From NCBI GenBank assembly GCA_035284745.1, contig JAYKIL010000008.1, positions 197,087-261,086 on the forward strand: a DNA stretch of 64,000 nt, read 5' to 3'. The translations under genes and the position numbers were made by a program. The DNA is from Candidatus Sericytochromatia bacterium. GTDB taxonomy: Bacteria > Cyanobacteriota > Sericytochromatia > S15B-MN24 > JAQBPE01. The notes under the pieces were generated by a model, which was not told the DNA's origin, ran no database searches, and worked only from the letters and a program-made list of their open reading frames with translations. Within the stretch, counting starts at the first letter, position 1. Every line of letters begins with the position of its first letter. Shown in pieces: positions 1-11,769 of the stretch.

Positions 1-1440
1 GGACTGCGGGGGATCGACATCGAGTGGACTCAGTACGTGTGCAACCCTTGAATCTGCGCCGAGTCGCTTCGAGAATGCCAGCAAGTCGCCAAAATGCTTG
101 ATTCCCAGTGCGTAATCCTTGCGCGGGGGCGTGTCGTGCCCCAAGGGTTGCTCGAGTCTCAATATGAGATTAATGGGAGCCACCAGTCCACCCTGCCCCA
201 TAGCCTGAAGTTCCTGGAATCCTCGCTCATAGGGTAACGCCCGGGGGAGCCAAGGGACCGTGGGAAAACCGCTTTTTAACCAGGCAACGGGCGCACTGAG
301 GACTAGAATTGGAAATAAAGCCGCCAGGACGTGGCGCCACGGGCGTTTCAAAACCCAGCGACACCAAGCCTCCCAGCGCTCTTTTGGATGACGGAGCCAT
401 GGGATATCTATGGAAAACCAACGGGGCGCATCGATAAAATTACCAATGAGAGCGAGACAGGCCGGCAGCAGCGTCAGTGCGAGCGTGACGGACACCAGTG
501 CAACCAAAAACCCCCCCACTCCCATCGAGCGACTGTCCAATACGGGCGTGGCGAGTAAACCAGCGAATCCGATGGCGACCGTCAGGCCCGATATCGCAAC
601 GGCGCGCCCGGCCGTTCGGACCGTCTCTCCGACAGCCTGTTGAACGCCTTCACCTGATTTGAGGGCTTCGCGAAAACGACTCACGACCAAAAGGGCGTAG
701 TCAATTCCCAACGCAAGGCCGAGCATGGAGGCGACGCTTTGGGTGTATGTTGACAGGTCGATCTGCGGTGCCAATAGGGCCAAAAGTCCAGAAGTCAGAA
801 CAATGGAGACAATGCCCATGAACAAGGGCACGCCGGCGGCGACCAGAGACCCGAAGGCAACCAAAAGGACGGCGGCGGTGAGGGGCAGGCTTCGCGCCTC
901 GGCCCTTCCCGTGTCGATGGTGCTGAAACGGTTAATGTCATAAGTCAGTGCAGCACGCCCCGTGACATTCCAAGAAAGACCTTCCAAGGCGCGTGCGTGA
1001 TGTTCACAGATCGCGTTGACGGTCGCCCGTACACTTGCCACAGCCATCTCCGCCGAAGCCACGTCACGGGCCCGCAGCCCAACCAGCAGAAGCGCGGCGT
1101 CCGGGTCCTCACTCTTAAAAGCACGGGTTCCCGGGTCTCCCGCCTTTAACACCTGAGCCACTTGTTTGTGTCTCGTTAGCGCCTGCTGTAGCTCACTGAG
1201 CAGGCCTTGACCCGAGGGTGTCGCGAGAAGGCGCTCGGGGACGCGAAGGGTAACAACCAGAGACTGGACGAAAGGGTTTGAAAATTCGTCCGCGAGCATT
1301 CGCTCGGCGATCGAAGAAGGTGTTCCAGCAATTGCACCCGTGCCGCTTCGAAGGTGAAGCGGAAGATCTTTGGCATAGCTTGAAGCCAAGACAACGAGCA
1401 ACAACCAGAAAGAGATGACCAGAAAGCGCCATCGGGCCAT
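1..1440 (-). CDS. MMPL/RND-superfamily membrane transporter, N-terminal ~480 aa (3' end beyond window start)
   Basis: Manual translation of minus strand from ATG at 1440 is open to position 1 (frame checked codon by codon). TM1 (RWRFLVISFWLLLVVLA), large periplasmic loop, then a 5-TM bundle (LPLTAAVLLVAFGSLVAAGVPLFMGIVSIVLTSGLLAL...DYALLVVSRFRE) typical of MMPL/SSD transporters. Not in ORF track because no stop codon lies in the window. Confidence 0.65.
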   Translation of the reverse strand, partial: MARWRFLVISFWLLLVVLASSYAKDLPLHLRSGTGAIAGTPSSIAERMLADEFSNPFVQSLVVTLRVPERLLATPSGQGLLSELQQALTRHKQVAQVLKAGDPGTRAFKSEDPDAALLLVGLRARDVASAEMAVASVRATVNAICEHHARALEGLSWNVTGRAALTYDINRFSTIDTGRAEARSLPLTAAVLLVAFGSLVAAGVPLFMGIVSIVLTSGLLALLAPQIDLSTYTQSVASMLGLALGIDYALLVVSRFREALKSGEGVQQAVGETVRTAGRAVAISGLTVAIGFAGLLATPVLDSRSMGVGGFLVALVSVTLALTLLPACLALIGNFIDAPRWFSIDIPWLRHPKERWEAWCRWVLKRPWRHVLAALFPILVLSAPVAWLKSGFPTVPWLPRALPYERGFQELQAMGQGGLVAPINLILRLEQPLGHDTPPRKDYALGIKHFGDLLAFSKRLGADSRVAHVLSPLDVDPPQS

Positions 1441-1580
1441 CCATTTGCCCCAGCGGCGAAATCGCTGGAAAGAGTCAACCACCGGGTCCCTCCAACCGCC
1501 CACAAGCAAGCGACAAGGGTGCTATGATGCAGGATGTGAGGCTTTAACGTCCAGACTTTGATGCGGTTTGGGTTCTCAAT

Positions 1581-2645
1581 TTGCGCAAGAGGTTAAGGTT
1601 GCGGGCAAAAAACTGGGATGACGAGGTGGGTGTGCAAGAGCTCCCATTCGGGCGGGAGGCTCTCGGCATCCTTCTCGGGGTGACCCCCGGCGGATGGCAT
1701 TTTGACCCCGTATTGCTCTCACATTGGCTCCGTTCCGACAGCCCATTTTTCCAGTGGGGGTCGGCGTCGCTCCTCTTCGTTGAAAATGCGGCCGCCCTGC
1801 TCGTTTCTCACGATTCCAGAATGACGAAGGGGCGCCTGGTCGCTTTCTCGGCACTGCGCGTGAACGAACGATTGTCAAGCGCGGAACAGGTTTCGGTGGT
1901 CGGTCGCTTGCTTCAGGCGGCCGCGCAGTGGGGGCGATCGCGGGGCGCGGAACGATTGGGAGGGCCACTGATGCTCTCAACATGGAACCCTTACCGAGTA
2001 CTTGCGGATGACAGGCCCAATGAGACAAATGGGTTTCCCGGCGAAGGAGTCGAGCCAGCCGCCTATAACTTACTCTACCGAGCCGCTGGTTTGCAGGTCA
2101 CCGATCGCTACGTGACCACTGCGCCCCCAGAAGATCCGGATTATTGGATGTTTCATTTGGATCGTGAGGCCGGGATTTCCAGCCGGCGCGCAGGCCGTGT
2201 CGCGGTTTTGCCCTTGTCGCCAGGGGATGGTTTACGCCTGGCTCCCCAAGTCTTTGAATGGCTCAATTCCTCATTTGTTCACAACCCCTATTTTGTGGCC
2301 CTCAGCGGGGCCGAGTTTGGGGATTGGCTGATGCAGTCGATGCCCGGCGGCGTCGAACCCGTTCGCTTGGGGGCCTTTGACGGCGATGGCACAGTCCTTG
2401 GGGTCCTGGCAGGTTTCGTGGCAGAGAACCGTGGAATTTTGAAAACCGTCGCGGTCCGTCCTGATGCCCAGGGGACCCGTTGTGCCATGGCCCTGACTTT
2501 TGAGTTTCACAGGCGCCTGTTTCATCGCGGCATCACGCAGGTTCAACACGCTCTGATGCACGTGAACAATTCGTCCGCTCGCATGAGTTCGAAATATGCC
2601 CGGCCGGTTCGCCACTATGTACTCTATGGCACTCACTGCGCTTGA
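1581..2645 (+). CDS. hypothetical protein, possible tandem GNAT-fold (Fem/MprF-C-like) acyltransferase
   Basis: 354-aa ORF. The C-terminal segment (GILKTVAVRPDAQGTRCAMALTFEFHRRLFHRGITQV) resembles GNAT motif A (Q/RxxGxG/A). It is first gene of a co-directional overlapping operon. Product assignment is weak. Confidence 0.45.
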   Translation: MRKRLRLRAKNWDDEVGVQELPFGREALGILLGVTPGGWHFDPVLLSHWLRSDSPFFQWGSASLLFVENAAALLVSHDSRMTKGRLVAFSALRVNERLSSAEQVSVVGRLLQAAAQWGRSRGAERLGGPLMLSTWNPYRVLADDRPNETNGFPGEGVEPAAYNLLYRAAGLQVTDRYVTTAPPEDPDYWMFHLDREAGISSRRAGRVAVLPLSPGDGLRLAPQVFEWLNSSFVHNPYFVALSGAEFGDWLMQSMPGGVEPVRLGAFDGDGTVLGVLAGFVAENRGILKTVAVRPDAQGTRCAMALTFEFHRRLFHRGITQVQHALMHVNNSSARMSSKYARPVRHYVLYGTHCA

Positions 2646-5205
2646 GTTTAATTGTTACCAGGCCACCTTGGGAGCGTCGAAGGTTGCTCCGGAGAAGGTG
2701 GCGCTTTGGCATTTACCAGATAAAAAAAATATTGACCAAGCCGTCACTTACGGTGAATTACGCGCCGAGATACATCGAGTTGCTTTCTCGTTACGACAGA
2801 AAGGCATCGGTTACGGTGACAAGGTGTTGGTGCTTTTGCCGATGTCGCCGGCCTTGTACTCGGTGATGTTCGCCGTCGCGATGGTGGGGGCTTCGTCCGT
2901 TTTCGTGGATCCTGTCGGCGGCGCGGCGCGTTTGATGGCAGCATTGGGGGATGCGAAGCCGCGGGCCGTCTTTATTCCGACGGGCGTGGCCCGTTTCTTC
3001 CGTTTGCTACCCGGTGTTCGGGATGTTCCGTGCGTTTTTTTTGTGAACATCGACCAGTCTCTGTTTCCAGGGGTGCCCGAAGACAGAGAGATTTGCCCCG
3101 TATCGCCAGATGACGCAATTTCATTGGTCTATACCACTGGGAGTACGGGAGCCCCCAAGCCTGTGAGGCGCTCTCATTCCGATATGCTTGCGATGCTAGC
3201 GGCATTGAATCAGCATCCAGCGAAGCATTCAGAGGCGGTGGATTTGCCGATGTGGCCTAATTTGGTATTTGATGCGCTGTGCCACGGAAGAACTTGCGTC
3301 ATACCGGCCGCGACAAGTGGACGCCTCGCCCTCTCTTCTCCAGATGTCTTGATAGGGCAGATGGAGCGATGTGGTGTCACCATGTGGATTGGGCCACCGG
3401 GACCTCTGGAGAAATTACTGGATGAGTTCGAAGCTCACGGGTCCCCGAGGGCCTTGCAACACATTTTCGTGGGGGGGGCGTTGGTGCCACCGCGCGTGTT
3501 GCGTCGGGCGCAAAATTGCCTTCCCTTGGAAGGAGAGGCTGTCGCGGTCTATGGCTCGACAGAAGCCGACCCTGTGGCGACGTTATCCGCTCGTGATCTG
3601 GTCGAAACCCCTGCCCGCGTGGGGGTGCCCATTGGGCGCCTTCATCCCAATATTCGCCTGCGTTTGGTCCAGCCGGACGTCGAGGCCAGTGAATGGAGTG
3701 GTGCCAGGGATGTGGTACCCGGAGAAGTGGGAGAGATTTGGGTCACGGGTCCTCACGTGAACACCTTTTTGGAACCCTCTGACCCTGGGGGGCACTCGAC
3801 CAAGATGGTTGACCCAACAGGAGTTGTTTGGCACCGGATGGGTGATTTGGCGTGGCAGGATAACCAACAATGCCTCTTCCTCATGGGCCGTTGGGCGCAA
3901 AGGGTTCAGCTTGCGGAACGTGTCCTTGACACGATTCCCGTCGAATTGACCGCTTTGGAAGTGGCGGGGGTCAAGCGAGCAGCGCTGCTGGGACGGAATA
4001 TGGAAGCTTGGGTTGTGGTCGAGCCGACTCCCCACGCGCGCCTTCACGAAGTGCAGGAGGCCTTAATACGGGCTCTGGAGCCCTTTTCGGTGACACGGGT
4101 CGTATTCCACCCGCAAATGCCCCTGGATGCTCGCCATATGAGCCGCATCGACTTGCAAAGCTTAACGCTTGACTTGCCCGACGATCCCCCGCGCTTGCCC
4201 CCTCTCGCCTCGCCGCCCCCTTTTCTCGAGGCGCTGCGCCTGTATTTGCGCGAACGCTTTCCCCTGCTGCAGACCCTGATCGGCGTATTGCTGATGGTCG
4301 CGACCGACGGCCTGGCAACTTTGGCTCTCATAGACCAACCTCTTCATCGCGAAGTGCTGCCCCAGATGATGATTGTGGTGGCAATCTTTATCGGTGTTTT
4401 CTTTCACCTGCGGGTTTTTGATGAACACAAAGACTGGGCCGTGGATCGCGTGGCCTTCCCAGAACGTATTTTGTCGCGGGGTTGGGTGACGCTTCGTCAA
4501 TTGCGGTTTTTGGCTGCGGGAGTGATCGTCAGTGAAATTCTTTTGGCCGCCACGACCAGCCTTGTCTTATTGGGGTGGACCCTTGTTCTCATTGCCTATT
4601 CCTGGTTGATGCTGCGTGAATTTTATGTGGGAGACTGGCTCAAACGACATCTGGTGATGTATGGGGCAAGCCACATGGCGATCATCTCGCTGATGTCCCT
4701 GGCTGCTTATGGAGCCATCCTTGATGCGCTGCCCTGGTCCGTTGTGAGCCATCTAAGTGGTGCTCAAGGCTTCGATGCCACCCTTCACGGCGTTCTGCCC
4801 GCCTTGGCATCCCGGGTTTGGCACCCAGGATTATTGCTTTTTGCCGGGATGAATTTCTGTTTGATCTACTCGCTGGAGGTGGCTCGTAAGATACGCACGC
4901 CCGAATTGGAGCGTCCGCAGGTCGACACCTATTCCCGGCGATTGGGGATCCCGGGGGCTCTGGTTTTGGTGCTCGCCACACAGTGTTCTGGACTCGCCAT
5001 GTTGGCCTTGGCGTCTTCCGCCCTTCACGTTCCCTGGGGAGTATTTTTATGGGGGGGGCTCACGATAGCATTTGTCGCGGTGCGCTATGGGATGTTCTAC
5101 TTGAATCCGACCCCAGCCGCTTCAAAAAGACTTGAGGCGACAGGCGCACTCACACTGGTGAACTTGAATGTTGCCCTGATCCTTTTCTGGGGAGTTTTTC
5201 GATGA
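2596..5205 (+). CDS. adenylate-forming (AMP-binding) enzyme fused to a C-terminal polytopic membrane domain
   Basis: Adenylation core motifs present: YTTGSTGAPKPV (A3), YGSTEA (A5), WHRMGDLAW (A7). The C-terminal ~320 aa have 8 or more predicted TM helices and an Asp-rich DEHKDWAVD (DxxxDxxxD) motif. The start may be an internal ATG (2617 or 2626), since the listed start overlaps the upstream gene by 50 nt. Confidence 0.7.
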   Translation: MPGRFATMYSMALTALEFNCYQATLGASKVAPEKVALWHLPDKKNIDQAVTYGELRAEIHRVAFSLRQKGIGYGDKVLVLLPMSPALYSVMFAVAMVGASSVFVDPVGGAARLMAALGDAKPRAVFIPTGVARFFRLLPGVRDVPCVFFVNIDQSLFPGVPEDREICPVSPDDAISLVYTTGSTGAPKPVRRSHSDMLAMLAALNQHPAKHSEAVDLPMWPNLVFDALCHGRTCVIPAATSGRLALSSPDVLIGQMERCGVTMWIGPPGPLEKLLDEFEAHGSPRALQHIFVGGALVPPRVLRRAQNCLPLEGEAVAVYGSTEADPVATLSARDLVETPARVGVPIGRLHPNIRLRLVQPDVEASEWSGARDVVPGEVGEIWVTGPHVNTFLEPSDPGGHSTKMVDPTGVVWHRMGDLAWQDNQQCLFLMGRWAQRVQLAERVLDTIPVELTALEVAGVKRAALLGRNMEAWVVVEPTPHARLHEVQEALIRALEPFSVTRVVFHPQMPLDARHMSRIDLQSLTLDLPDDPPRLPPLASPPPFLEALRLYLRERFPLLQTLIGVLLMVATDGLATLALIDQPLHREVLPQMMIVVAIFIGVFFHLRVFDEHKDWAVDRVAFPERILSRGWVTLRQLRFLAAGVIVSEILLAATTSLVLLGWTLVLIAYSWLMLREFYVGDWLKRHLVMYGASHMAIISLMSLAAYGAILDALPWSVVSHLSGAQGFDATLHGVLPALASRVWHPGLLLFAGMNFCLIYSLEVARKIRTPELERPQVDTYSRRLGIPGALVLVLATQCSGLAMLALASSALHVPWGVFLWGGLTIAFVAVRYGMFYLNPTPAASKRLEATGALTLVNLNVALILFWGVFR

Positions 5206-7805
5206 CTGATGTATGGACGGCAGAATGGTTGGCCTCGTCCGCTCAGCCCGCTCTCGATGCCTCGGCCGTTCGCTGGGGGGGGAAGGGAAGAGGATTGCTT
5301 CGGCTGGTTGCAGGCGGCTTCCAGGTTCCTGAGTTTTTTATTTTAAGTTCTGACGTGATGGTGAAAGCCCAAGAAACAGGCCAACTCTGTGCGGACTTTC
5401 CGGGCCTGAAAGAAACGTTGGCGTTAGCGCTTAAAAAGCTACCCGATGCCCCCGTTGCGGTGAGGAGCAGTGCCGCTGAAGAGGACGGCGACCGTTTTTC
5501 TCTGGCGGGCCAATTCGACACTTTTTTGGGGGTTCCGAAGGATGTGGACCAGGTTGCCGACAAGGTGGTGGCCTGCTGGGTTTCGCTGCAAGGCGAGAGG
5601 GCGACTGCTTACCGACAACAGCACGGTTTGTCATCCGAACGAGCCCGGATGGCAGTGGTCGTTCAAACCATGGTGCCCGCGGAGCGCTCTGTCGTTATTT
5701 TTTCCGGAAATCCAGCCACCGGAGATGCTGATGAAGTGGTCGTCTCTTCTGTGTGGGGCCTCGGAGCAGCCCTCGTATCTGGAGACACAGAGGGTGATAC
5801 CGAAATCTTCACTCCCGACGGCTCCTTGAAGTCACGCAGTACGGGTTCTCAGGCGCGTTATCACACGCTATTGGCAGGTGGGGAGATCGCCGAGCTCGCG
5901 CTTCCCTCCGAACGATTGGGTCAACCCGTCCTGTCTCCTGCGAACCGACAAGCTGCCCGCCGCCTGGCCCGAAACATTGCGGAGCATTTCGATCGCCCCG
6001 TTGATATTGAAGCCTCTTTTCTTGGTGATACGCTGTGGGTGCTTCAGGCGCGCCCCATCACGACCCCTTTGAGCCGCCACCGTCTGTTGTGGGACAACAG
6101 CAACATTGTTGAGAGCTATGACGGGGTTACGACGCCCCTGACTTTTTCTCATGCTTGCAACGCGTATCGCCTGGTATACACGCAGTTCGGCCGATTGTTG
6201 GGCGTCCCGCGTTCGACCTATGACAGGCATGAGCGCCAAATGATGACCTACATAGGACTGCTGAATGGCCGAGTCTACTACAACTTGTTGATGTGGTATC
6301 TCTCGATGGCGCACTTACCTGGCTACGCCTTCACCAGGGGGGCGATGGAAAACATGATGGGCGTGCGAGAAAGCCTGAATGTTGAGTTGCCGGAGGCCGG
6401 GGCGCCTCTCGAAAAGTGGACGAAGGACTTTCCACGGCTTGTCTGGATGCTGCTGCGGGGTTTGTGGGCCTTCGGCACCCTTCAGGTGCGCGTGAATCGG
6501 TTTTGGAGCAATTTTGAGCATGTGTATGCCCAATGGCATCAGCACAATTTCGACACCTGGGAAACTCCCCGCCTGATGGCTCTGTACCACGAATTGGTTG
6601 TGAAAGTGTTACATCGTTGGGAGGCTCCCATTCTCACGGACGTGGGCGCGATGCTTTCAATGGCTGCTTTGCAAAAAGCTCTCAAAGCATGGGTGGCTGG
6701 CGATGATGACTGGGTAGGCCCATTGCTTGTGGCGACGGGCGATATAGAAAGCACCCGTCCGACGGAACGCTTAATGGAAATCGCAGGTTTTCTTAAAGCG
6801 TCTCCTGCTGCGCTCGCGTTATTGCAGGGCGACGACGCCGCCTTCTGGCCCGGGTTGCACAAGAACACTGAATTGACGCCCATATTAAAGATGCTTGAAG
6901 ATTGGCTGGCCTGCTATGGCGATCGCGCGATGGGGGAACTCCGGCTTGAGGCGCCTACTCCGCGCGAAGAACCTGCGATGGTCGTGCCATTATTGAGGAC
7001 TTATGTGGCTCTGGAGCAGAAACGCGGGGGTGCTGGTCCTGAATCAGCAATGGAGGCCACCCAACGTGCCGAGTCAAGGCTTCACGAGGTTTTGCAGGGT
7101 CGCCCCGTTCGAGGCTGGGTGGTTCGCTGCTTGCTGCATTGGACACGCCAGCATGTTCGCAACCGCGAGAATATGCGATTTGCCCGCACCCGTTTAACCG
7201 GGGTCCTTCGCCGATTATTCAAAGCGGTGGGGCGTGACTTGGTTCAGGTGGGGATTTTAAGGCGTCCAGACGATGTTTTTTTTCTATCGGTGGAGGAACT
7301 CACGGCGTATGTCGACGGCCGCTCAATCACTCGCGATCTGGGGGCCTTGGCCGACATGCGTCGTCGTGAATACGCCGAATATCCAGCGCAGGAACCCCCC
7401 GACCGTTTTGTAACCATCGGATTGCCTGCGGTCAAAGTTCCTGTTGCGCAAACACTCAACAGCGACGAAATGGTCCTTCAAGGAACACCCTGCTCTCCGG
7501 GCGAAGTCGAAGCCCCTATTCGGATCATTCGGCATCCCAGTGAGGGAGGGGCCTTGCAGGGAGAAATCGTGGTGGCTGCGCGCACTGATCCGGGCTGGGT
7601 TGCATTGTATCCGGCAGCAAAGGGCTTACTGGTAGAGAAAGGCAGCGTTTTGTCACATTCCGCGATTGTGGCTCGAGAGATGGGTCTTCCGACAATTGTC
7701 GGGATTCCCGGGTTATGTCAGCGCCTACGGGGGGGTGAGCGGGTACATATGGATGGGAAGACGGGTGTGGTTCGCATTGTAGACGGGGAGGGAAACAGTG
7801 TCTAA
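5202..7805 (+). CDS. PEP-utilising enzyme family phosphotransferase (PpsA/rifampin-phosphotransferase-like, three-domain)
   Basis: N-terminal PPDK-type ATP-grasp nucleotide-binding domain (RWGGKGRGLLRL). C-terminal PEP-utilizers swivel domain with catalytic His (GSVLSHSAIVAREMGLPTIVGIPG). ~400-aa central domain of unknown specificity. Start overlaps upstream stop (ATGA). Confidence 0.75.
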   Translation: MTDVWTAEWLASSAQPALDASAVRWGGKGRGLLRLVAGGFQVPEFFILSSDVMVKAQETGQLCADFPGLKETLALALKKLPDAPVAVRSSAAEEDGDRFSLAGQFDTFLGVPKDVDQVADKVVACWVSLQGERATAYRQQHGLSSERARMAVVVQTMVPAERSVVIFSGNPATGDADEVVVSSVWGLGAALVSGDTEGDTEIFTPDGSLKSRSTGSQARYHTLLAGGEIAELALPSERLGQPVLSPANRQAARRLARNIAEHFDRPVDIEASFLGDTLWVLQARPITTPLSRHRLLWDNSNIVESYDGVTTPLTFSHACNAYRLVYTQFGRLLGVPRSTYDRHERQMMTYIGLLNGRVYYNLLMWYLSMAHLPGYAFTRGAMENMMGVRESLNVELPEAGAPLEKWTKDFPRLVWMLLRGLWAFGTLQVRVNRFWSNFEHVYAQWHQHNFDTWETPRLMALYHELVVKVLHRWEAPILTDVGAMLSMAALQKALKAWVAGDDDWVGPLLVATGDIESTRPTERLMEIAGFLKASPAALALLQGDDAAFWPGLHKNTELTPILKMLEDWLACYGDRAMGELRLEAPTPREEPAMVVPLLRTYVALEQKRGGAGPESAMEATQRAESRLHEVLQGRPVRGWVVRCLLHWTRQHVRNRENMRFARTRLTGVLRRLFKAVGRDLVQVGILRRPDDVFFLSVEELTAYVDGRSITRDLGALADMRRREYAEYPAQEPPDRFVTIGLPAVKVPVAQTLNSDEMVLQGTPCSPGEVEAPIRIIRHPSEGGALQGEIVVAARTDPGWVALYPAAKGLLVEKGSVLSHSAIVAREMGLPTIVGIPGLCQRLRGGERVHMDGKTGVVRIVDGEGNSV

Positions 7806-8757
7806 CGCGCTCATTGATACCGCTATTTTGCATCGTCAGGCTTCAGCCCGCCCCCTGGACCTTGACAGTTTACCGTGGGCCGATGGCGTGAATCCGGAAA
7901 ATTGGTTTGCTCCGGAGTCGATGACTCACTTACTTCAGAGTCCGAGCTATCGCCATTTCAATGAAACAGAGAAGAAGCTGTATGCCCGTACCGTTGCCTT
8001 CGCCAAGGCAGAGTTGTTCATCTATTTTGAAGAGCACCTGTTGGCCCCGGTGATACAACGACTGATTTCAGAGCCCCAGCGATTCAGTATCGAACCCGGG
8101 CTTCTTTCTTGCCTTCGCGACTTTCACCGGGAGGAGTTACAACACACCGAGATGTTCTGGCGCCTGCTCGAAACCGCTGCGCCGGAACTTTATCCGACGC
8201 GAAATCTTCGTATTTACCGCAGTTATTTTAGCCTCAAACTGCTGCCGGGTGCCCTTCGCCAGTTCCCTGATACTTTAATACTTTGGGTCTGGCTTGCGAT
8301 GTTCATCGAGGAACTGACGGTCGACCTGTACCGGCAGTATCGACAAGACGACCGGGTTGAACCACTTTTTGAGGCCGTCTATCAGGCCCATATGATGGAT
8401 GAAATGCGTCACGTGTCGATTGACCACCACGTTCTGGAGGCACTCTGGGATACTGCTCCGCGCTGGCTGCGCGTGATGAATGTTGGCCTTCTCGATCACA
8501 TCGTATCAAAGGTGACCTCTCCCGTAGCGGCTCCCCGTGCGGCGATCGAAGAGGTATTGCTGCATTCGCCTCATTTATGGAACCATCGGGATGAGTTTTT
8601 TCGCGATATCGCCGCCTTGGGGCAAAATATGGCGTATCAGGAGGCCCACTATTCCCGGGAGACCTTGCCTCGCACCTTTGGATTGTTGGATCGATATCCT
8701 GAGATGCGGGCACTTCGTAAGGGGTTTCCAGCCTATCGCCCGCGATCACTCGCGTGA
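7798..8757 (+). CDS. ferritin-like diiron-carboxylate oxygenase (AurF / acyl-ACP-desaturase-like)
   Basis: Two E...ExxH half-sites (FEEHLL...REELQHTEMF and FIEELTV...DEMRHVSIDHH) arranged as in four-helix-bundle diiron enzymes. 8-nt overlap with the upstream gene. Confidence 0.5.
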   Translation: MSNALIDTAILHRQASARPLDLDSLPWADGVNPENWFAPESMTHLLQSPSYRHFNETEKKLYARTVAFAKAELFIYFEEHLLAPVIQRLISEPQRFSIEPGLLSCLRDFHREELQHTEMFWRLLETAAPELYPTRNLRIYRSYFSLKLLPGALRQFPDTLILWVWLAMFIEELTVDLYRQYRQDDRVEPLFEAVYQAHMMDEMRHVSIDHHVLEALWDTAPRWLRVMNVGLLDHIVSKVTSPVAAPRAAIEEVLLHSPHLWNHRDEFFRDIAALGQNMAYQEAHYSRETLPRTFGLLDRYPEMRALRKGFPAYRPRSLA

Positions 8758-8779
8758 CTGGTGAGTTCTAGGACTTCGC

Positions 8780-9898
8780 GTGCCGTCGCCCCCCTTTGCC
8801 GATGAAAATAGCCTGGCCGCACAGCCGTTCTTTCGAGAGATTGGGTATTCATCGTGCTGGGAGGATCCGGTTGTTTTGCGCCAGGCACTGGCTGTTCGCT
8901 CGGGAGACTGTGTGCTGTCGATTGCATCGGGCGGATGCAATGTATTGAGCCTGTTGCTCGACGATCCAGCGTCCATTTTATGTGTCGATTTAAACCCTCA
9001 TCAACTGACGCTGTTACGCCTCAAGATAGCGGCCATTCGACAACTAGAATACTCTGAACTGCTTGAATTGTTGGGGGTTCGCGTATCAAGCCGTCGGATT
9101 GAACTCCTTGATACACTGTTCCCAGAATTGCCTTTGGCCGATCGAGAATATTGGAGGGCACGTCGACGACAGATTGCTCAGGGACTGTATCGCACGGGTC
9201 GCACCGATCGATATTTGATGGCTTTTGGCACCCTTGTAAGGACCTTGTTTGGCCAGAGCAAAGTCAAGCAGTTTTTTGGTTTCGCCGAACTGGACGCGCA
9301 GATTGAATTTTACCGCTCGCATTGGGATGGATGGCGTTGGCGCAAGCTGTTCGAGGTTTTCTTCCACCGCCAAATTATCTCCCGCGCCAAGGACCCCAGC
9401 CATTTTCGCTATGTTGAGTTTGATCGATTCGGGGAGAGGATCTACGCCCGCGTGGAGCGTTTATTCACCACCGGCCTTGTGCGCGAAAATTACTTTTTGG
9501 GCCTCATCATGTTGGGGCACTACGCCTCCGAGACTGCGCTGCCGCCATACCTTTTGGAAAACAATCTTCCACTGGTGCGCGCACGCCTCGATCGCTTGAT
9601 TCTTCGCCACGCCAGCCTTTCAGCGGTCCTGGAACCCGTGGGACCGGCGCGCTTCGATGCGTTTAATTTGTCTAATTTGTACGACTGGCTCAGTGACGAC
9701 GCGCGGATCGCCTCCCTGAGACAGGCATCAATGGCCGCCACACCAGGCGCCCGTTGGTGCTACTGGAGTACACTGGAGCCGCGCCTGGCCCCTGTACTAG
9801 AGGGCGTGGACCTCCAGCCGGAACGCTCATGCGAGCTCGCGTATGCCGATAGGTTTCCCTATGCACACTTTGAAACCGGTACTTTTTTTGCTCAATGA
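8780..9898 (+). CDS. BtaA-like (DUF3419) S-adenosylmethionine-dependent 3-amino-3-carboxypropyl transferase
   Basis: N-terminal IGYSSCWEDP motif and SIASGGCN Rossmann-like segment recall the betaine-lipid synthase BtaA / DUF3419 family. ~370 aa size fits. Confidence 0.55.
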   Translation: MPSPPFADENSLAAQPFFREIGYSSCWEDPVVLRQALAVRSGDCVLSIASGGCNVLSLLLDDPASILCVDLNPHQLTLLRLKIAAIRQLEYSELLELLGVRVSSRRIELLDTLFPELPLADREYWRARRRQIAQGLYRTGRTDRYLMAFGTLVRTLFGQSKVKQFFGFAELDAQIEFYRSHWDGWRWRKLFEVFFHRQIISRAKDPSHFRYVEFDRFGERIYARVERLFTTGLVRENYFLGLIMLGHYASETALPPYLLENNLPLVRARLDRLILRHASLSAVLEPVGPARFDAFNLSNLYDWLSDDARIASLRQASMAATPGARWCYWSTLEPRLAPVLEGVDLQPERSCELAYADRFPYAHFETGTFFAQ

Positions 9899-9905
9899 CT
9901 CGTGC

Positions 9906-10862
9906 TCAAGCGGACGGGGATACCACTCGCAAGCCCGCAGGGATCACCGCTATCTCAAGGGTTTCTGCCCGGGCCAGGGGCTCACCGTCGGCCATAAAGG
10001 ATAACGGTTCATCCCCAACGAGGGTAAATGTTTTCCCTTCCCCCAATTCAACTTCCTCGGCCCCTTCGTGAGCCCCTGCCCGGTTTAATAGGGCTGCAAT
10101 CCAGAGGCTTCTCGCACGCGTCCGCCAATCAATGCGACAGTACCCCAATGAACCGTCGAATTGCCGGGTGTGGGGACACGATGTCACGGTTCGGCCGATG
10201 AACGGTTGGTTTTGAATAAACAGGGCCAAAATAACGCTTTGAACCCTATCTCGCCCATCGACACATAGTGTGACAGTCTGTGGGATTTTCGCTGCACTCA
10301 GCACGAGCCAACCACTAAAGAGGGGATAGGCCGCGCTTCCCAAGGCCCGGGTGAAAGCGCCTAGCAATCCGCTGCGGCTTTTTAGCGCATGCACCCCTTC
10401 TGCGACGTCATTGACAATTCCAATGCCCCCCCCTGTTAAAAAATAACGACCATTGACGCGCCCCACATCAATCGTTCGAATTTCGCCGTTCAGGATTGCC
10501 CGACAGCTTTCCCGTGGGGTCAAGGGAATTTTCAGTGCTCGGGCCAAGTCATTCGCAGTTCCGGCAGGGATGATCCCCAGAGCAGTTTCAGTATTGACGA
10601 GTTGATTGGCGACGACGTTGAGAGAGCCATCTCCTCCCACGACGACGACGACATCCACCCCCTCAACAACAGATTCCCGGGCCACCCGACGCATCGCGTC
10701 GAGTGATCCGGGAACAACGACCTCGTGATCGGTGCCATCAAAAGCAGCCCGCACGATTCCAAGCCAACGCCTGTCGGCCCCATTGCGTGCCGCATGATTG
10801 ACCAAAATGCGGTATCGCGTCGGGGAACTCAAGGCCTCGTTAGTTGTAATAGCCGAATCCAA
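9906..10862 (-). CDS. diacylglycerol-kinase-family lipid kinase (YegS/BmrU/DgkB-like)
   Basis: DAGK_cat signature VVVVGGDGSLNVVANQL and GIIPAGTANDLARAL. Convergent with the plus-strand operon; translationally overlapped by the upstream OMP gene. Confidence 0.75.
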   Translation of the reverse strand: MDSAITTNEALSSPTRYRILVNHAARNGADRRWLGIVRAAFDGTDHEVVVPGSLDAMRRVARESVVEGVDVVVVVGGDGSLNVVANQLVNTETALGIIPAGTANDLARALKIPLTPRESCRAILNGEIRTIDVGRVNGRYFLTGGGIGIVNDVAEGVHALKSRSGLLGAFTRALGSAAYPLFSGWLVLSAAKIPQTVTLCVDGRDRVQSVILALFIQNQPFIGRTVTSCPHTRQFDGSLGYCRIDWRTRARSLWIAALLNRAGAHEGAEEVELGEGKTFTLVGDEPLSFMADGEPLARAETLEIAVIPAGLRVVSPSA

Positions 10863-11565
10863 TCAAGCCCACGTCGACATTCGTGTCCATCGAGCTGACG
10901 TAGTTTAACCAAAGATAAGCATTTTCGTTAAACAAATACTTGGCCCCAGCACCCCAGCGGCGATCCGGGGCCGTCGCCATGTTGCCCAGATTCCAGTTGT
11001 ACTGACCGTTCGCGCCCACTGAAATTCGATCATTCACCCAAAGATCGGCCCCGAGGGCTGCAGCCCCTCGAAACCCACCATTCATCAAATAACCCACCTC
11101 AGGTTGCGCGGTGAGTTCCAAGCCCCCGAATTTCAACAGCAATGAATTTTTGTAGGTAGCCCCGTAGTCCATCGCGCCACCCGGGGCTAAGTTGAATCGA
11201 CCGATATAGGCACCGCCCCACGACCATCCATTTCCCGCCGCATAGCGCTGCCTCAGTCCTATTTGGCTCTCTGCTGACAGTAAAACCGCCCAGTTTAGAC
11301 CATCGTCGATCGCGCCGCCTGCGCCCGCCAAACCAAAGGGCAAGGTGGGAGCCTGGGTGTTCAAACGCTGATTGAGAAGGCCCCCCGCCACGCCAAACTC
11401 GTTATGTCCAACTCCGAGATAGACCGGCGAGTAGACCAAACCACCCGCGGAAATAATTCGGGCCGGCGAAGTTACAATGGCGTCATCGGCAGCAGCCTGC
11501 GCTGGAGTGATGAAAGCGGGAAAGGTCATCAGTGCGCACGCAACCGCCAGCAGTTTTTTCTTCAT
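10840..11565 (-). CDS. outer-membrane beta-barrel protein with signal peptide
   Basis: Signal peptide MKKKLLAVACALMTFPAFITPAQAAADD. Gly/aromatic-rich alternating pattern to the C-terminus (GLIGFGYYN). Start is 23 nt inside the kinase gene's upstream neighbour overlap. Confidence 0.55.
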   Translation of the reverse strand: MKKKLLAVACALMTFPAFITPAQAAADDAIVTSPARIISAGGLVYSPVYLGVGHNEFGVAGGLLNQRLNTQAPTLPFGLAGAGGAIDDGLNWAVLLSAESQIGLRQRYAAGNGWSWGGAYIGRFNLAPGGAMDYGATYKNSLLLKFGGLELTAQPEVGYLMNGGFRGAAALGADLWVNDRISVGANGQYNWNLGNMATAPDRRWGAGAKYLFNENAYLWLNYVSSMDTNVDVGLIGFGYYN

Positions 11566-11725: not shown

Positions 11726-11756
11726 CCAAACAAAAAGACCGGCCACAAGGGCCGGT
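11726..11756 (-). terminator. rho-independent terminator downstream of tRNA-Ser(GCU)
   Basis: On minus strand: GACCGGCC-cttgt-GGCCGGTC hairpin followed by TTTTTGTTT. Confidence 0.5.
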
Positions 11757-11769
11757 CGGCACATCAGAA

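Follow-up and report, generated by a model that had tools for sequence, protein, structure and literature searches.

An uncharacterised, widely distributed enzyme cassette in a Sericytochromatia genome may build and export a membrane-bound amphiphile

What do the closely spaced genes at the start of a 64,000-nucleotide stretch of a Candidatus Sericytochromatia bacterium genome (contig JAYKIL010000008.1; hereafter the window) make together? A preliminary description of positions 1–11,565 proposed a five-gene, translationally coupled operon amid lipid-related neighbours, devoted to an unusual membrane lipid. Five forward-strand open reading frames (g1–g5) indeed occupy positions 1581–9898, and profile searches bore out the family proposed for each. 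g1 (1581–2645, 354 aa), whose start is ambiguous between 1581 (TTG) and 1599 (the public gene call), overlaps g2 (2596–5205) by 50 nt; g2 overlaps g3 (5202–7805) by 4 nt (ATGA) and g3 overlaps g4 (7798–8757) by 8 nt. The frames had all been said to overlap, which holds for these three of the four junctions but not for the last, where a 22-nt gap separates g4 from g5 (8780–9898). On the reverse strand, the stop codon of g6 (9906–10862) faces that of g5 at a distance of 7 nt, and g7 (10840–11565) overlaps the start of g6 by 23 nt. A transporter gene of the MMPL/RND family (1–1482, reverse strand) diverges from the operon and runs off the start of the window, which holds only its N-terminal ~490 aa.

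These genes are not chance open reading frames: independent assemblies retain their order, with orthologues at 45–68% amino acid identity. As proposed, g1–g5 form one coupled operon, and this unit is conserved. Sericytochromatia MAGs preserve all eight genes as a block (40–60% identity), with different outer flanks at one locus (L005). All carriers of this window-type block are uncultured.

In a Pfam search, g1 alone gave sub-threshold matches to Acetyltransf_1 and Acetyltransf_6, with a GNAT score of 18 bits. Its family comprises 504 representatives, of which 60 were sampled for domain search; since 53 of these 60 match Acetyltransf_1 (best E-value 1.6e-13), we assign g1 to the predicted GNAT acyltransferases. 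A low-confidence AF2 model (pLDDT 64) retrieves tandem GNATs only in a structure search, consistent with a tandem-GNAT acyltransferase-like protein.

The N-terminal domain of g2 (2596–4185) is a predicted adenylating (ANL) domain of the OleC-like or “fatty acid CoA ligase family” type, with an AMP-binding domain (PF00501, 170 bits) and the core motifs A3 (YTTGSTGAPKP), A5 (YGSTEA) and A7 (MGD). The OleC and PRK09274 adenylases, which share these core motifs, are its best-scoring curated families, and it reaches 295 bits against NF006754, below the cut-off. We rejected an OleC beta-lactone synthetase, as the scores against the OleC models (191 and 124, with cut-offs of 900 and 850) are far too low for the equivalog and the block contains no ole genes. 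Unlike OleC, which has OleA/B/D neighbours (as in a true ole locus, L092), g2 is joined to a membrane transferase and carries Arg where the A10 motif has Lys, a swap seen in four of five fused proteins. Nor is g2 an ordinary acyl-CoA synthetase.

This protein had been described as an adenylase–membrane fusion. The fusion stands, and we newly recognise its membrane half (4186–5205, ~8–9 transmembrane helices) as a divergent UbiA-superfamily intramembrane transferase on the basis of profile, fold and an Asp-rich motif, which alters the chemistry to be expected. The domain matches the NCBIfam prenyltransferase models PRK13592 (6e-16) and PRK05951, and the profile of its family matches DGGGP synthase (6m31) at an E-value of 1.9e-6. 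Its AF2 model (pLDDT 77, pTM 0.77) has 4od4/4od5, 7bpu/6m31, 4tq3/4 and 8j8k as top Foldseek matches, with TM-scores of up to 0.69; the modelled fold thus resembles ApUbiA, DGGGPS, AfUbiA and the Mtb PRTase. Residues R76, D79, D83, D87, E231, R234, K235 and Y249 are invariant. The first Asp-rich motif (NDxxDxxxD) is present as D79-E-x-K-D83-x3-D87, which does not vary across 22 sequences and can be aligned with its DGGGPS counterpart, although the leading Asn is lost. The second motif, DxxxD, was not found in the domain, where E231-xx-R234-K235...E242...D247-x-Y249 is conserved instead. While the window domain has no Pfam match to PF01040 and a Riflebacteria orthologue falls below the cut-off (27.6 versus 34.2), the Brevibacillus orthologue passes it with 56.8. 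In most other lineages the UbiA-like protein is encoded by a stand-alone gene of ~310 aa. Fold, first Asp-rich motif and membrane location are shared with archaeal DGGGP synthase and mycobacterial Rv3806c (decaprenyl-phosphate phosphoribosyltransferase). The g2 domain differs from these in its non-canonical second motif, its fusion to an adenylase and its partner, an Rph-type dikinase rather than a prenyl-diphosphate or PRPP synthase. There is nevertheless a similar logic, in that Rv3806c is fed by PRPP synthetase and here, too, an ATP-to-AMP enzyme possibly making a phosphorylated substrate lies beside the transferase.

That enzyme, g3, is an Rph/PigC-type ATP-dependent dikinase with ATP-grasp, substrate and His-swivel domains (PPDK_N, Rph_4th and PEP-utilizers all present) and an intact catalytic His motif, GSVLSHSAIVARE. 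Among solved structures it best matches 5fbs/5hv1, the Listeria rifampin phosphotransferase (E-value 6e-59). An ordinary PEP synthase (PpsA) was rejected, given a score of 195 against the TIGR01418 cut-off of 739.75 and the absence of the PEP/pyruvate-binding C-terminal TIM-barrel domain (PEP-utilizers_C). So was a rifamycin phosphotransferase proper (274 versus 999 for NF041857; 199 versus 1700 for NF000283), and g3 likewise lies far under the equivalog cut-offs of PigC (270 against 1300) and RedH (252 against 1350). Rph-type enzymes use ATP to phosphorylate hydroxyls on hydrophobic molecules, releasing AMP and Pi (PMC4844700), and their relatives include PigC/HapC and hydroxyphenylethanone kinase (PMC13534948, PMC12167813). 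Since g3 shares the three-domain architecture and catalytic His motif of Rph, PigC (HapC, RedH) and hydroxyphenylethanone kinase, the expected chemistry would be ATP + X-OH -> X-O-P + AMP + Pi (PMC4844700, PMC13534948, PMC12167813). Unlike these enzymes, it is linked to a UbiA-like gene, and its context is not one of resistance, prodiginine synthesis or aromatic catabolism.

The fourth gene encodes an AurF-family diiron oxygenase-like protein (PF11583, 58.9 bits, cut-off 29.6) with paired diiron ExxH motifs, E113xxH116 and E205xxH208. The characterised members AurF and CmlI are arylamine N-oxygenases. g5 is a DUF3419/BtaA-family SAM-dependent transferase-like protein that matches PF11899 over its full length (residues 17–331; 229.9 bits, cut-off 28.2), and its motif VLSIxSGGCN is invariant or near-invariant in 27 relatives. 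Elsewhere, a PEMT fusion occurs in Bacteroidota and Ignavibacteria, and a Deefgea plasmid carries a DUF3419 gene alongside genes for SpeD and an iron redox enzyme, a clearly non-lipid setting.

The flanking transporter and kinase also agree with the preliminary description. The transporter matches PF03176 when the full gene is read from the source contig, with MmpL3/actII/HpnN-type NCBIfam matches all under their cut-offs, and its position is kept in four further loci (L002–L005). The convergent g6 is a DAG-kinase-family enzyme, a YegS/Rv2252/BmrU-type lipid kinase (PF00781, DAGK_cat; PF19279, YegS_C) that narrowly passes TIGR00147 (119.7 versus 118.65) and has the GGDG motif in VVVVGGDGSLN. 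The small secreted protein g7 gave no family match in profile searches; a signal peptide is its sole hydrophobic stretch, and its C-terminus is rich in Gly and aromatic residues (GFGYYN). An outer-membrane beta-barrel is plausible. g7 is kept in L002–L004, L008 and L009, and in L005 it is shifted to the far side of the MMPL gene, still within the block.

Beyond this clade, four of the five enzyme types of the operon make up a previously undescribed biosynthetic cassette, found again and again across many phyla of bacteria. Co-localisation is seen in other genomes: among 80 genome loci anchored on DUF3419, a dikinase occurs in 30 and a dikinase together with a UbiA-like gene in 25, with cassette loci in Sericytochromatia, Tanganyikabacteria, Riflebacteria, Ozemobacteraceae, Wallbacteria, UBP16 and Parcubacteria. 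We also collected 80 metagenome loci anchored on the UbiA-like gene. Where these had room downstream (51 loci), a dikinase was present in 44 and lay directly downstream in 34, and the 18 long loci contained dikinase (16), adenylase (15), DUF3419 (14), GNAT (10) and HMGR (8) genes. In most loci a g1-type gene directly precedes that of the adenylase. In PLSDB there were only two UbiA-like matches, both adjoining the two best dikinase matches. The two cultured carriers, Brevibacillus laterosporus B9 and Roseinatronobacter sp. S2, have coupled operons, in the order HMGR-UbiA-dikinase-DUF3419-hyp439-GNAT-adenylase-P450 in Brevibacillus and the same without the P450 in Roseinatronobacter; the latter lies on a plasmid, the former on a 1.38-Mb record classed as one. 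A Planctomycete locus combines UbiA-like, dikinase and adenylase genes, with no DUF3419 within 8 kb. Thus, of the quintet first proposed as a unit, the GNAT, adenylase, UbiA-like, dikinase and DUF3419 components are conserved together, often with an HMG-CoA-reductase-like enzyme, whereas the AurF-like gene falls outside this core. It was found only in window-type Sericytochromatia loci (L001–L010, L016, L020) and in none of the 80 UbiA-anchored metagenome loci; along with the MMPL, lipid kinase and g7 genes, it is a clade-specific addition in Sericytochromatia. In keeping with the earlier suggestion that no described pathway has this combination of enzymes, literature searches returned no paper describing it.

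The enzyme superfamilies, intact catalytic motifs, gene fusion and neighbourhood conservation are computed observations, and we see about an even chance that the locus as a whole is a pathway for the biosynthesis and export of a membrane-bound amphiphile, built on this widely distributed, uncharacterised five-enzyme cassette. Its product is probably an unusual membrane-bound lipid bearing an amino acid. The dikinase would convert ATP to AMP while phosphorylating, or possibly pyrophosphorylating, a hydroxyl of a hydrophobic substrate, and probably supplies this phosphorylated molecule, as donor or acceptor, to the adjacent UbiA-type domain, which would form, within the membrane, a C-O or C-C bond. 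From SAM, g5 probably transfers a 3-amino-3-carboxypropyl group onto a hydroxyl of that lipid, as BtaA does on diacylglycerol, giving a homoserine-type head group whose free amine is then probably acylated or oxidised. For acylation, the g2 adenylase could activate a carboxylic acid, probably a fatty acid, for N-acylation of the head-group amine by the tandem GNAT; the AurF-like enzyme might carry out N- or C-oxygenation of the product. g6 may phosphorylate a lipid intermediate or tune the DAG/PA pool. The MMPL protein probably exports the product, perhaps with g7, to the cell envelope. The steps may follow the order first proposed, with aminocarboxypropylation before oxidation, phosphorylation and acylation.

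Several partner genes bear on these steps. A lipid theme draws support from the MMPL and LolA-like genes inside Riflebacteria operons, from the MMPL and lipid kinase genes here and from the DAGK-like genes that adjoin DUF3419 in 32 of the 80 genome loci. The interchangeable amine-modifying partners (GNAT in the window and most other loci, Formyl_trans_N in Riflebacteria, the PEMT fusion and, in the canonical operon, the BtaB methyltransferase) suggest an amine intermediate. In other lineages, pairing or fusion of the adenylase with an HMGR-like domain suggests that reduction of the activated acid yields an alcohol there and that this alcohol is what the dikinase phosphorylates; one Riflebacteria protein fusing AMP-binding, PP-binding and HMG-CoA_red domains ties the adenylase to thioester reduction. 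As the HMGR-like reductase is absent from the window clade, the acid-to-alcohol step cannot apply here in this form. Against the amphiphile pathway stand the non-canonical second motif of the UbiA-like domain and its missing PF01040 match, the A10 substitution in the fusions and the Planctomycete locus with no DUF3419 nearby. Moreover, DUF3419 also occurs in non-lipid settings such as the Deefgea plasmid, so that aminocarboxypropyl transfer to a lipid is not guaranteed.

Further counter-evidence, with the look of a natural-product cluster, is the cassette's occurrence without MMPL and beside a P450 in a Gram-positive, and on a plasmid; this makes a specialised metabolite a live alternative. 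Here, a small molecule, prenylated or alkylated and perhaps aromatic or derived from an amino acid, would be phosphorylated, given a SAM-derived group, acylated, oxidised and exported without serving as a structural lipid. We consider this main rival possible but rather unlikely. It would account for the patchy spread across phyla, the plasmid locations and the P450 adjoining in Brevibacillus, and it fits the arylamine N-oxygenases AurF and CmlI, the small-molecule setting of the Deefgea DUF3419 gene and the many UbiA enzymes that prenylate aromatic acids, which the adenylase could then activate. The closest characterised relatives of g3 (PigC/RedH, Rph and hydroxyphenylethanone kinase) also serve natural products or xenobiotics (PMC13534948, PMC4844700, PMC12167813). 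However, lipid-handling genes (MMPL, LolA-like and DAGK-type) turn up repeatedly with the cassette, it has no conserved PKS, NRPS or aromatic-precursor partners, and it is found in reduced-genome Parcubacteria, where elaborate secondary metabolism is not expected. The weak affinities of the UbiA-like domain also favour the DGGGP-synthase/EboC side over UbiA/MenA.

A conventional betaine-lipid (DGTS/DGHS) locus that serves under phosphate limitation, with g5 acting as BtaA on diacylglycerol and the other genes as passengers, seems improbable. g5 is a full-length member of BtaA's Pfam family, and the setting is lipid-related, with a DAG-kinase-family gene adjoining. No BtaB-type methyltransferase was found in positions 1–11,565, unlike the Rhizobium operon, where btaB overlaps btaA in a canonical pair (L096). 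In addition, g5 is closer to the cassette-type DUF3419 proteins of Brevibacillus and Roseinatronobacter (30–32% identity, E-values 1e-34 to 1e-41) than to rhizobial BtaA (27–30%, 1e-17 to 1e-21; 28–30% for the BtaA of a btaA-btaB operon). Its linkage to dikinase and UbiA-like genes across phyla would be needless for a stand-alone BtaA, and the UbiA-like, dikinase, adenylase, GNAT and diiron oxygenase components are foreign to DGTS synthesis. Less probable still, and in our view scarcely credible, is a chance gathering of functionally unlinked genes for housekeeping or resistance, such as those for a rifamycin phosphotransferase or PEP synthase, for an acyl-CoA synthetase and for a quinone prenyltransferase, as the generic NCBI-style names of the relatives (“phosphoenolpyruvate synthase,” “AMP-binding protein,” “UbiA family prenyltransferase”) might suggest. 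The start/stop overlaps are conserved, linkage is held in at least seven phylum-level groups despite rearrangement, two components are joined in one protein, and the PEP synthase, Rph and OleC equivalog cut-offs are all missed widely.

For the amphiphile pathway, mycobacterial FadD-MmpL lipid biosynthesis and export loci, which bring together an adenylating enzyme, an acyltransferase and an MMPL exporter, offer a comparison. The window likewise groups an adenylase with an acyltransferase and, transcribed divergently, an MMPL exporter; it differs from those loci in having no polyketide synthase and a GNAT rather than PapA, and it adds the UbiA-like, dikinase and DUF3419 components.

What is new at this locus is a combination of enzymes, within a biosynthetic/export gene cluster, for which we found no published description in the literature searched, together with a new fusion architecture. 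Each component is, as judged from its sequence, a member of a known enzyme superfamily; the novelty lies in a PEP-synthase-like dikinase tightly coupled to a divergent UbiA-family transferase, accompanied by a SAM-dependent enzyme of the BtaA family and an adenylase/GNAT pair. The five genes are co-directional on the forward strand: g1 (1581–2645), g2 (2596–5205), g3 (5202–7805), g4 (7798–8757), and g5 (8780–9898). The boundaries reported in the preliminary description stand, as do the overlaps at three of the four junctions (50, 4, and 8 nt), whereas g4 and g5 are separated by a 22-nt gap. An MMPL transporter gene on the reverse strand (1–1482), which extends past the window start, diverges from the operon. 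On the other side, the g5 stop lies 7 nt from that of the convergent lipid kinase gene g6 (9906–10862, reverse strand), the start of which overlaps g7 (10840–11565, reverse strand) by 23 nt. The public g6 call is only 262 aa (9906–10694), whereas the longest open reading frame encodes 318 aa and orthologues have 320–330 aa, so the call is probably truncated at its 5′ end. No strong terminator was found within the operon, and a promoter scan of the region was uninformative (9 promoter-like sites versus 5.0 ± 2.5 expected). The strongest terminator-like hairpin of the region (11737–11757, reverse strand; 8 base pairs including 7 G-C, then a T-run) lies upstream of g7 and thus marks a boundary between the g7-g6 unit and the sequence to its right.

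Family assignments differ in how readily they emerge. Taken alone, g1 has a sub-threshold GNAT score, and a word-index search gave only four close relatives; an exhaustive search revealed a family of ~500 representative clusters, in which 53 of 60 sampled sequences match Acetyltransf_1, and a low-confidence model of g1 retrieves tandem-GNAT structures only. The g3 protein has the Rph-type architecture (PPDK_N, Rph_4th, and PEP-utilizers) with an intact swivel-His motif; among solved structures, it is closest to the Listeria rifampin phosphotransferase (E 6e-59). Its scores fall short of all equivalog cut-offs for PEP synthase, Rph, PigC, and RedH, and the PEP/pyruvate-binding domain found in PpsA is missing; g3 is not an ordinary PEP synthase. 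The g4 protein is a bona fide member of PF11583 (AurF family) with two ExxH motifs, for which plasmids yielded one weak match only, in an unannotated record. Full-length similarity to DUF3419 (229.9 bits) identifies g5, and g6 scores above the cut-off for YegS/Rv2252/BmrU lipid kinases. Sequence-based searches of solved structures with g1, g4, and a g5 profile gave no significant match. The product of g7, previously labeled an outer-membrane beta-barrel, carries a signal peptide, ends in an OMP-like C-terminus, and matches no family.

The g2 protein combines two enzymes. Its N-terminal half (residues 1–~525) is an ANL adenylating domain (PF00501, 170 bits) in which the A3, A5, and A7 motifs were found; the best curated families are the “fatty acid CoA ligase family” NF006754 (295 bits) and OleC models, all under their cut-offs. 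The A10 motif (window 4120–4135, residues ~509–519) reads RHMSRID, versus RHN(A/S)KI in OleC-like relatives. Four of the five fused proteins, and also protein P0006, have arginine in place of the catalytic lysine of this motif; protein P0005 has lysine. Identity with OleC was rejected, as a true ole locus (L092) differs in gene content. In Allorhodopirellula solitaria (L091, 6033–9764), an OleC-like adenylase gene overlaps a RimK/ATP-grasp gene and follows a gene for methenyl-tetrahydromethanopterin cyclohydrolase in a context of methanopterin-type genes; the adenylase clade is the same, its use unrelated.

The C-terminal half of g2 (residues ~545–869) had been described simply as a membrane part. 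Four lines of evidence identify it as a divergent UbiA-superfamily transferase. The domain matches NCBIfam prenyltransferase models (PRK13592, E 6e-16; PRK05951, E 2e-11), and a 22-sequence profile of the family aligns with the archaeal DGGGP synthase (6m31, E 1.9e-6) over a stretch spanning the first Asp-rich motif. An AF2 model built on a five-sequence alignment (pLDDT 77, pTM 0.77) has ApUbiA, DGGGPS, AfUbiA, and a mycobacterial membrane phosphoribosyltransferase as its top structural matches. Invariant residues are R76, D79, D83, D87, E231, R234, K235, and Y249; the canonical second DxxxD motif is not retained.

The nearest relatives of g2 and g5 are encoded in Candidatus Sericytochromatia MAGs, with which the window shares synteny beyond this block too. 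The window, which matches a Logan assembly contig, thus most likely derives from a non-photosynthetic member of the Cyanobacteriota. The full-length g2 fusion occurs in only four other 90%-identity clusters, each 50–55% identical, and all four contigs carry the divergent MMPL gene, g1 to g5, and the convergent kinase gene and g7. Contig L005 has different outer flanks, with g7 relocated beside the MMPL gene, which delimits the unit to eight genes. More divergent Sericytochromatia (L010, L016) keep all components at 33–52% identity, but in place of g2 they have two separate proteins, an adenylase of 532 aa and a UbiA-like protein of 324–341 aa. The order GNAT-adenylase-UbiA-dikinase, common elsewhere with the adenylase and UbiA-like genes separate (e.g., locus L097), is that of the window; thus, g2 represents a fusion of neighboring genes.

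We then considered the distribution of a core cassette comprising the GNAT, adenylase, UbiA-like, dikinase, and DUF3419 genes. A scan anchored on DUF3419, with one genome per GTDB species, returned at least 80 loci. Among the 80 listed, a g3 homologue lies within 10 kb in 30, g3 together with the UbiA-like gene in 25, and a g6-like kinase in 32. Loci with g3, UbiA-like, and DUF3419 genes occur in Sericytochromatia, Tanganyikabacteria, Riflebacteria, Ozemobacteraceae, Wallbacteria, UBP16, an “Erysipelotrichia” MAG, and Parcubacteria, often with MMPL and LolA-like genes in the operon. An independent metagenome scan anchored on the UbiA-like family also gave at least 80 loci; 51 of those listed have room downstream, and the dikinase is present in 44 of these (directly downstream in 34). 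Where at least 5 kb is available on both sides (18 of the loci listed), the dikinase is found in 16, the adenylase in 15, DUF3419 in 14, a g1-family GNAT in 10, an HMG-CoA-reductase-like (HMGR) enzyme, recurrent with the cassette, in 8, and an AurF gene in none. In a Planctomycete MAG, UbiA-like, dikinase, and adenylase genes are coupled, with a g1-like gene 5 kb away; DUF3419 was not found at this locus. Overall, the cassette is widespread, in non-photosynthetic Cyanobacteriota, Riflebacteria, Wallbacteria, Planctomycetes, candidate-phyla-radiation bacteria, an alphaproteobacterial plasmid, and a Bacillota genome. Genes for a permease, a histidine kinase, a P-type ATPase, a patatin, and HEAT-repeat proteins in distant loci were set aside as lineage-specific neighbors.

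A tblastn search of PLSDB detected the UbiA-like protein in only two records, each time adjoining one of the two best g3 matches. In cultured organisms, the Roseinatronobacter sp. S2 plasmid NZ_CP121116.1 (128–136.7 kb) encodes overlapping (HMGR)-UbiA-dikinase-DUF3419-hyp439-GNAT-adenylase genes, and Brevibacillus laterosporus B9 (NZ_CP011076.1, about 465–475 kb) encodes HMGR-UbiA-dikinase-DUF3419-hyp439-GNAT-adenylase-P450. Co-localization elsewhere therefore holds for four of the five proteins that the preliminary description had grouped. The AurF-like gene is best viewed as encoding a putative clade-specific tailoring enzyme, in the slot taken by a P450 in Brevibacillus. Both carriers are culturable, so the function of the cassette is directly accessible to genetics and mass spectrometry. 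The 439-aa protein that follows DUF3419 in these carriers (L094:15514–16833 and L093:4932–6251) and in at least five metagenome loci has no Pfam match and is absent from the window and every Sericytochromatia locus.

The tightest pairing in the cassette is that of the dikinase and the UbiA-like transferase. Known UbiA-family reactions cleave a C–O–diphosphate donor that a dedicated synthase produces. Rph-type enzymes act on hydrophobic molecules, phosphorylating their hydroxyls while converting ATP to AMP and Pi (PMC4844700, PMC12167813, PMC13534948). Together with the tight pairing, this leads us to propose that g3 makes the phosphorylated substrate of the UbiA-like enzyme, which would constitute new enzymology. 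The second tight pairing, GNAT and adenylase, whose genes are overlapping neighbors in the window, L088, Brevibacillus, and Roseinatronobacter, may act as a module that activates an acid and then acylates an amine. The recurrence of an HMGR-like enzyme, in Riflebacteria fused to AMP-binding and PP-binding domains, suggests that lineages with this enzyme convert the activated acid to an alcohol, a potential dikinase substrate; window-clade loci lack an HMGR-like gene, so the step is not transferable to that clade. Aminocarboxypropyl transferases are rare in nature, and the BtaA reaction yields a primary amine. BtaA, which transfers the 3-amino-3-carboxypropyl group of SAM to diacylglycerol, is the sole characterized DUF3419 activity (PMC10491745, PMC11869996). 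In the literature searched, the one natural-product paper naming DUF3419 places the gene outside the cly cluster. The g5 protein could thus give an aminocarboxypropyl-bearing intermediate with a primary amine. The partners of DUF3419 vary by lineage, all from amine-modifying families: GNAT in most loci, Formyl_trans_N in Riflebacteria, a fused PEMT methyltransferase in Bacteroidota and Ignavibacteria, BtaB in Rhizobium, and additionally the AurF family in the window. Such interchangeability lends circumstantial support to this intermediate. The MMPL transporter, YegS-type kinase, and g7 may serve to export a lipid, or to modify it further, in a diderm envelope.

Of the lipid-tailoring pathway proposed earlier, the underlying observation is confirmed and the interpretation supported in part. 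Chance juxtaposition of the genes is excluded by their conservation and by the gene fusion. An ordinary DGTS locus, in which g5 would act as BtaA, is unlikely: BtaB is absent, g5 is closer by score to cassette-type DUF3419 proteins than to rhizobial BtaA, and the dikinase and UbiA-like genes are linked with g5. If the product is a lipid, its class of polar lipid would be new, and the BtaA family would acquire a second function. The main alternative, a specialized prenylated metabolite, draws on the plasmid location, the P450 alongside, the patchiness of the distribution, and the ties of g3 and g4 relatives to natural products or xenobiotics; we consider it a real though rather doubtful prospect.

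A specific lipid scheme, which we advance as speculative and quite improbable in full, is that the cassette provides an isoprenoid-independent donor supply for a UbiA-type transferase. A carboxylic acid would be adenylated and, in most lineages, reduced to an alcohol in a four-electron step by the HMG-CoA-reductase-like enzyme; the dikinase would phosphorylate or pyrophosphorylate the alcohol; the UbiA-like enzyme would take the product as alkyl donor; and the resulting ether-linked lipid would gain an N-capped homoserine (aminocarboxypropyl) head group via DUF3419. If true, this scheme would add a new class of ether/amino lipids to those of bacteria and assign a new biochemical role to PEP-synthase-like dikinases.

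Parts of the cassette also occur in other settings. At L088 (7009–10807) and L089, a g1-family GNAT gene overlaps one for a g2N-like adenylase (34% identity); next comes a gene for a membrane protein of 380 aa, rich in Ala and Gly, and UbiA-like, dikinase, and DUF3419 genes are absent. Thus, the GNAT-adenylase pair can stand alone. Riflebacteria (L046:2189–5242, also L086:2–2482) encode a 1017-aa AMP-binding, PP-binding, and HMG-CoA-reductase protein, a tri-domain architecture for which we found no description in the literature searched, directly upstream of Formyl_trans_N and UbiA-like genes. Bacteroidota and Ignavibacteria (L021–L087; e.g., L045 8558–12084, L038 8504–12071, and L031) have ~620-aa fusions of an N-terminal PEMT domain (PF04191) to DUF3419, flanked on one side by a DAGK-like (g6-like) kinase and, at several loci, on the other by a tandem GNAT with weak similarity to g1. 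Kinase, DUF3419, and GNAT together have the appearance of a second conserved module, possibly a betaine-lipid-type synthase of those phyla. On the Deefgea piscis plasmid NZ_CP054144.1 (L095, 25848–29699), DUF3419 is flanked by an “iron-containing redox enzyme family protein” on one side and SpeD (SAM decarboxylase) on the other, with an ABM monooxygenase and a serine hydrolase next in order. This is a different, apparently small-molecule context that again places DUF3419 with an iron oxidase.
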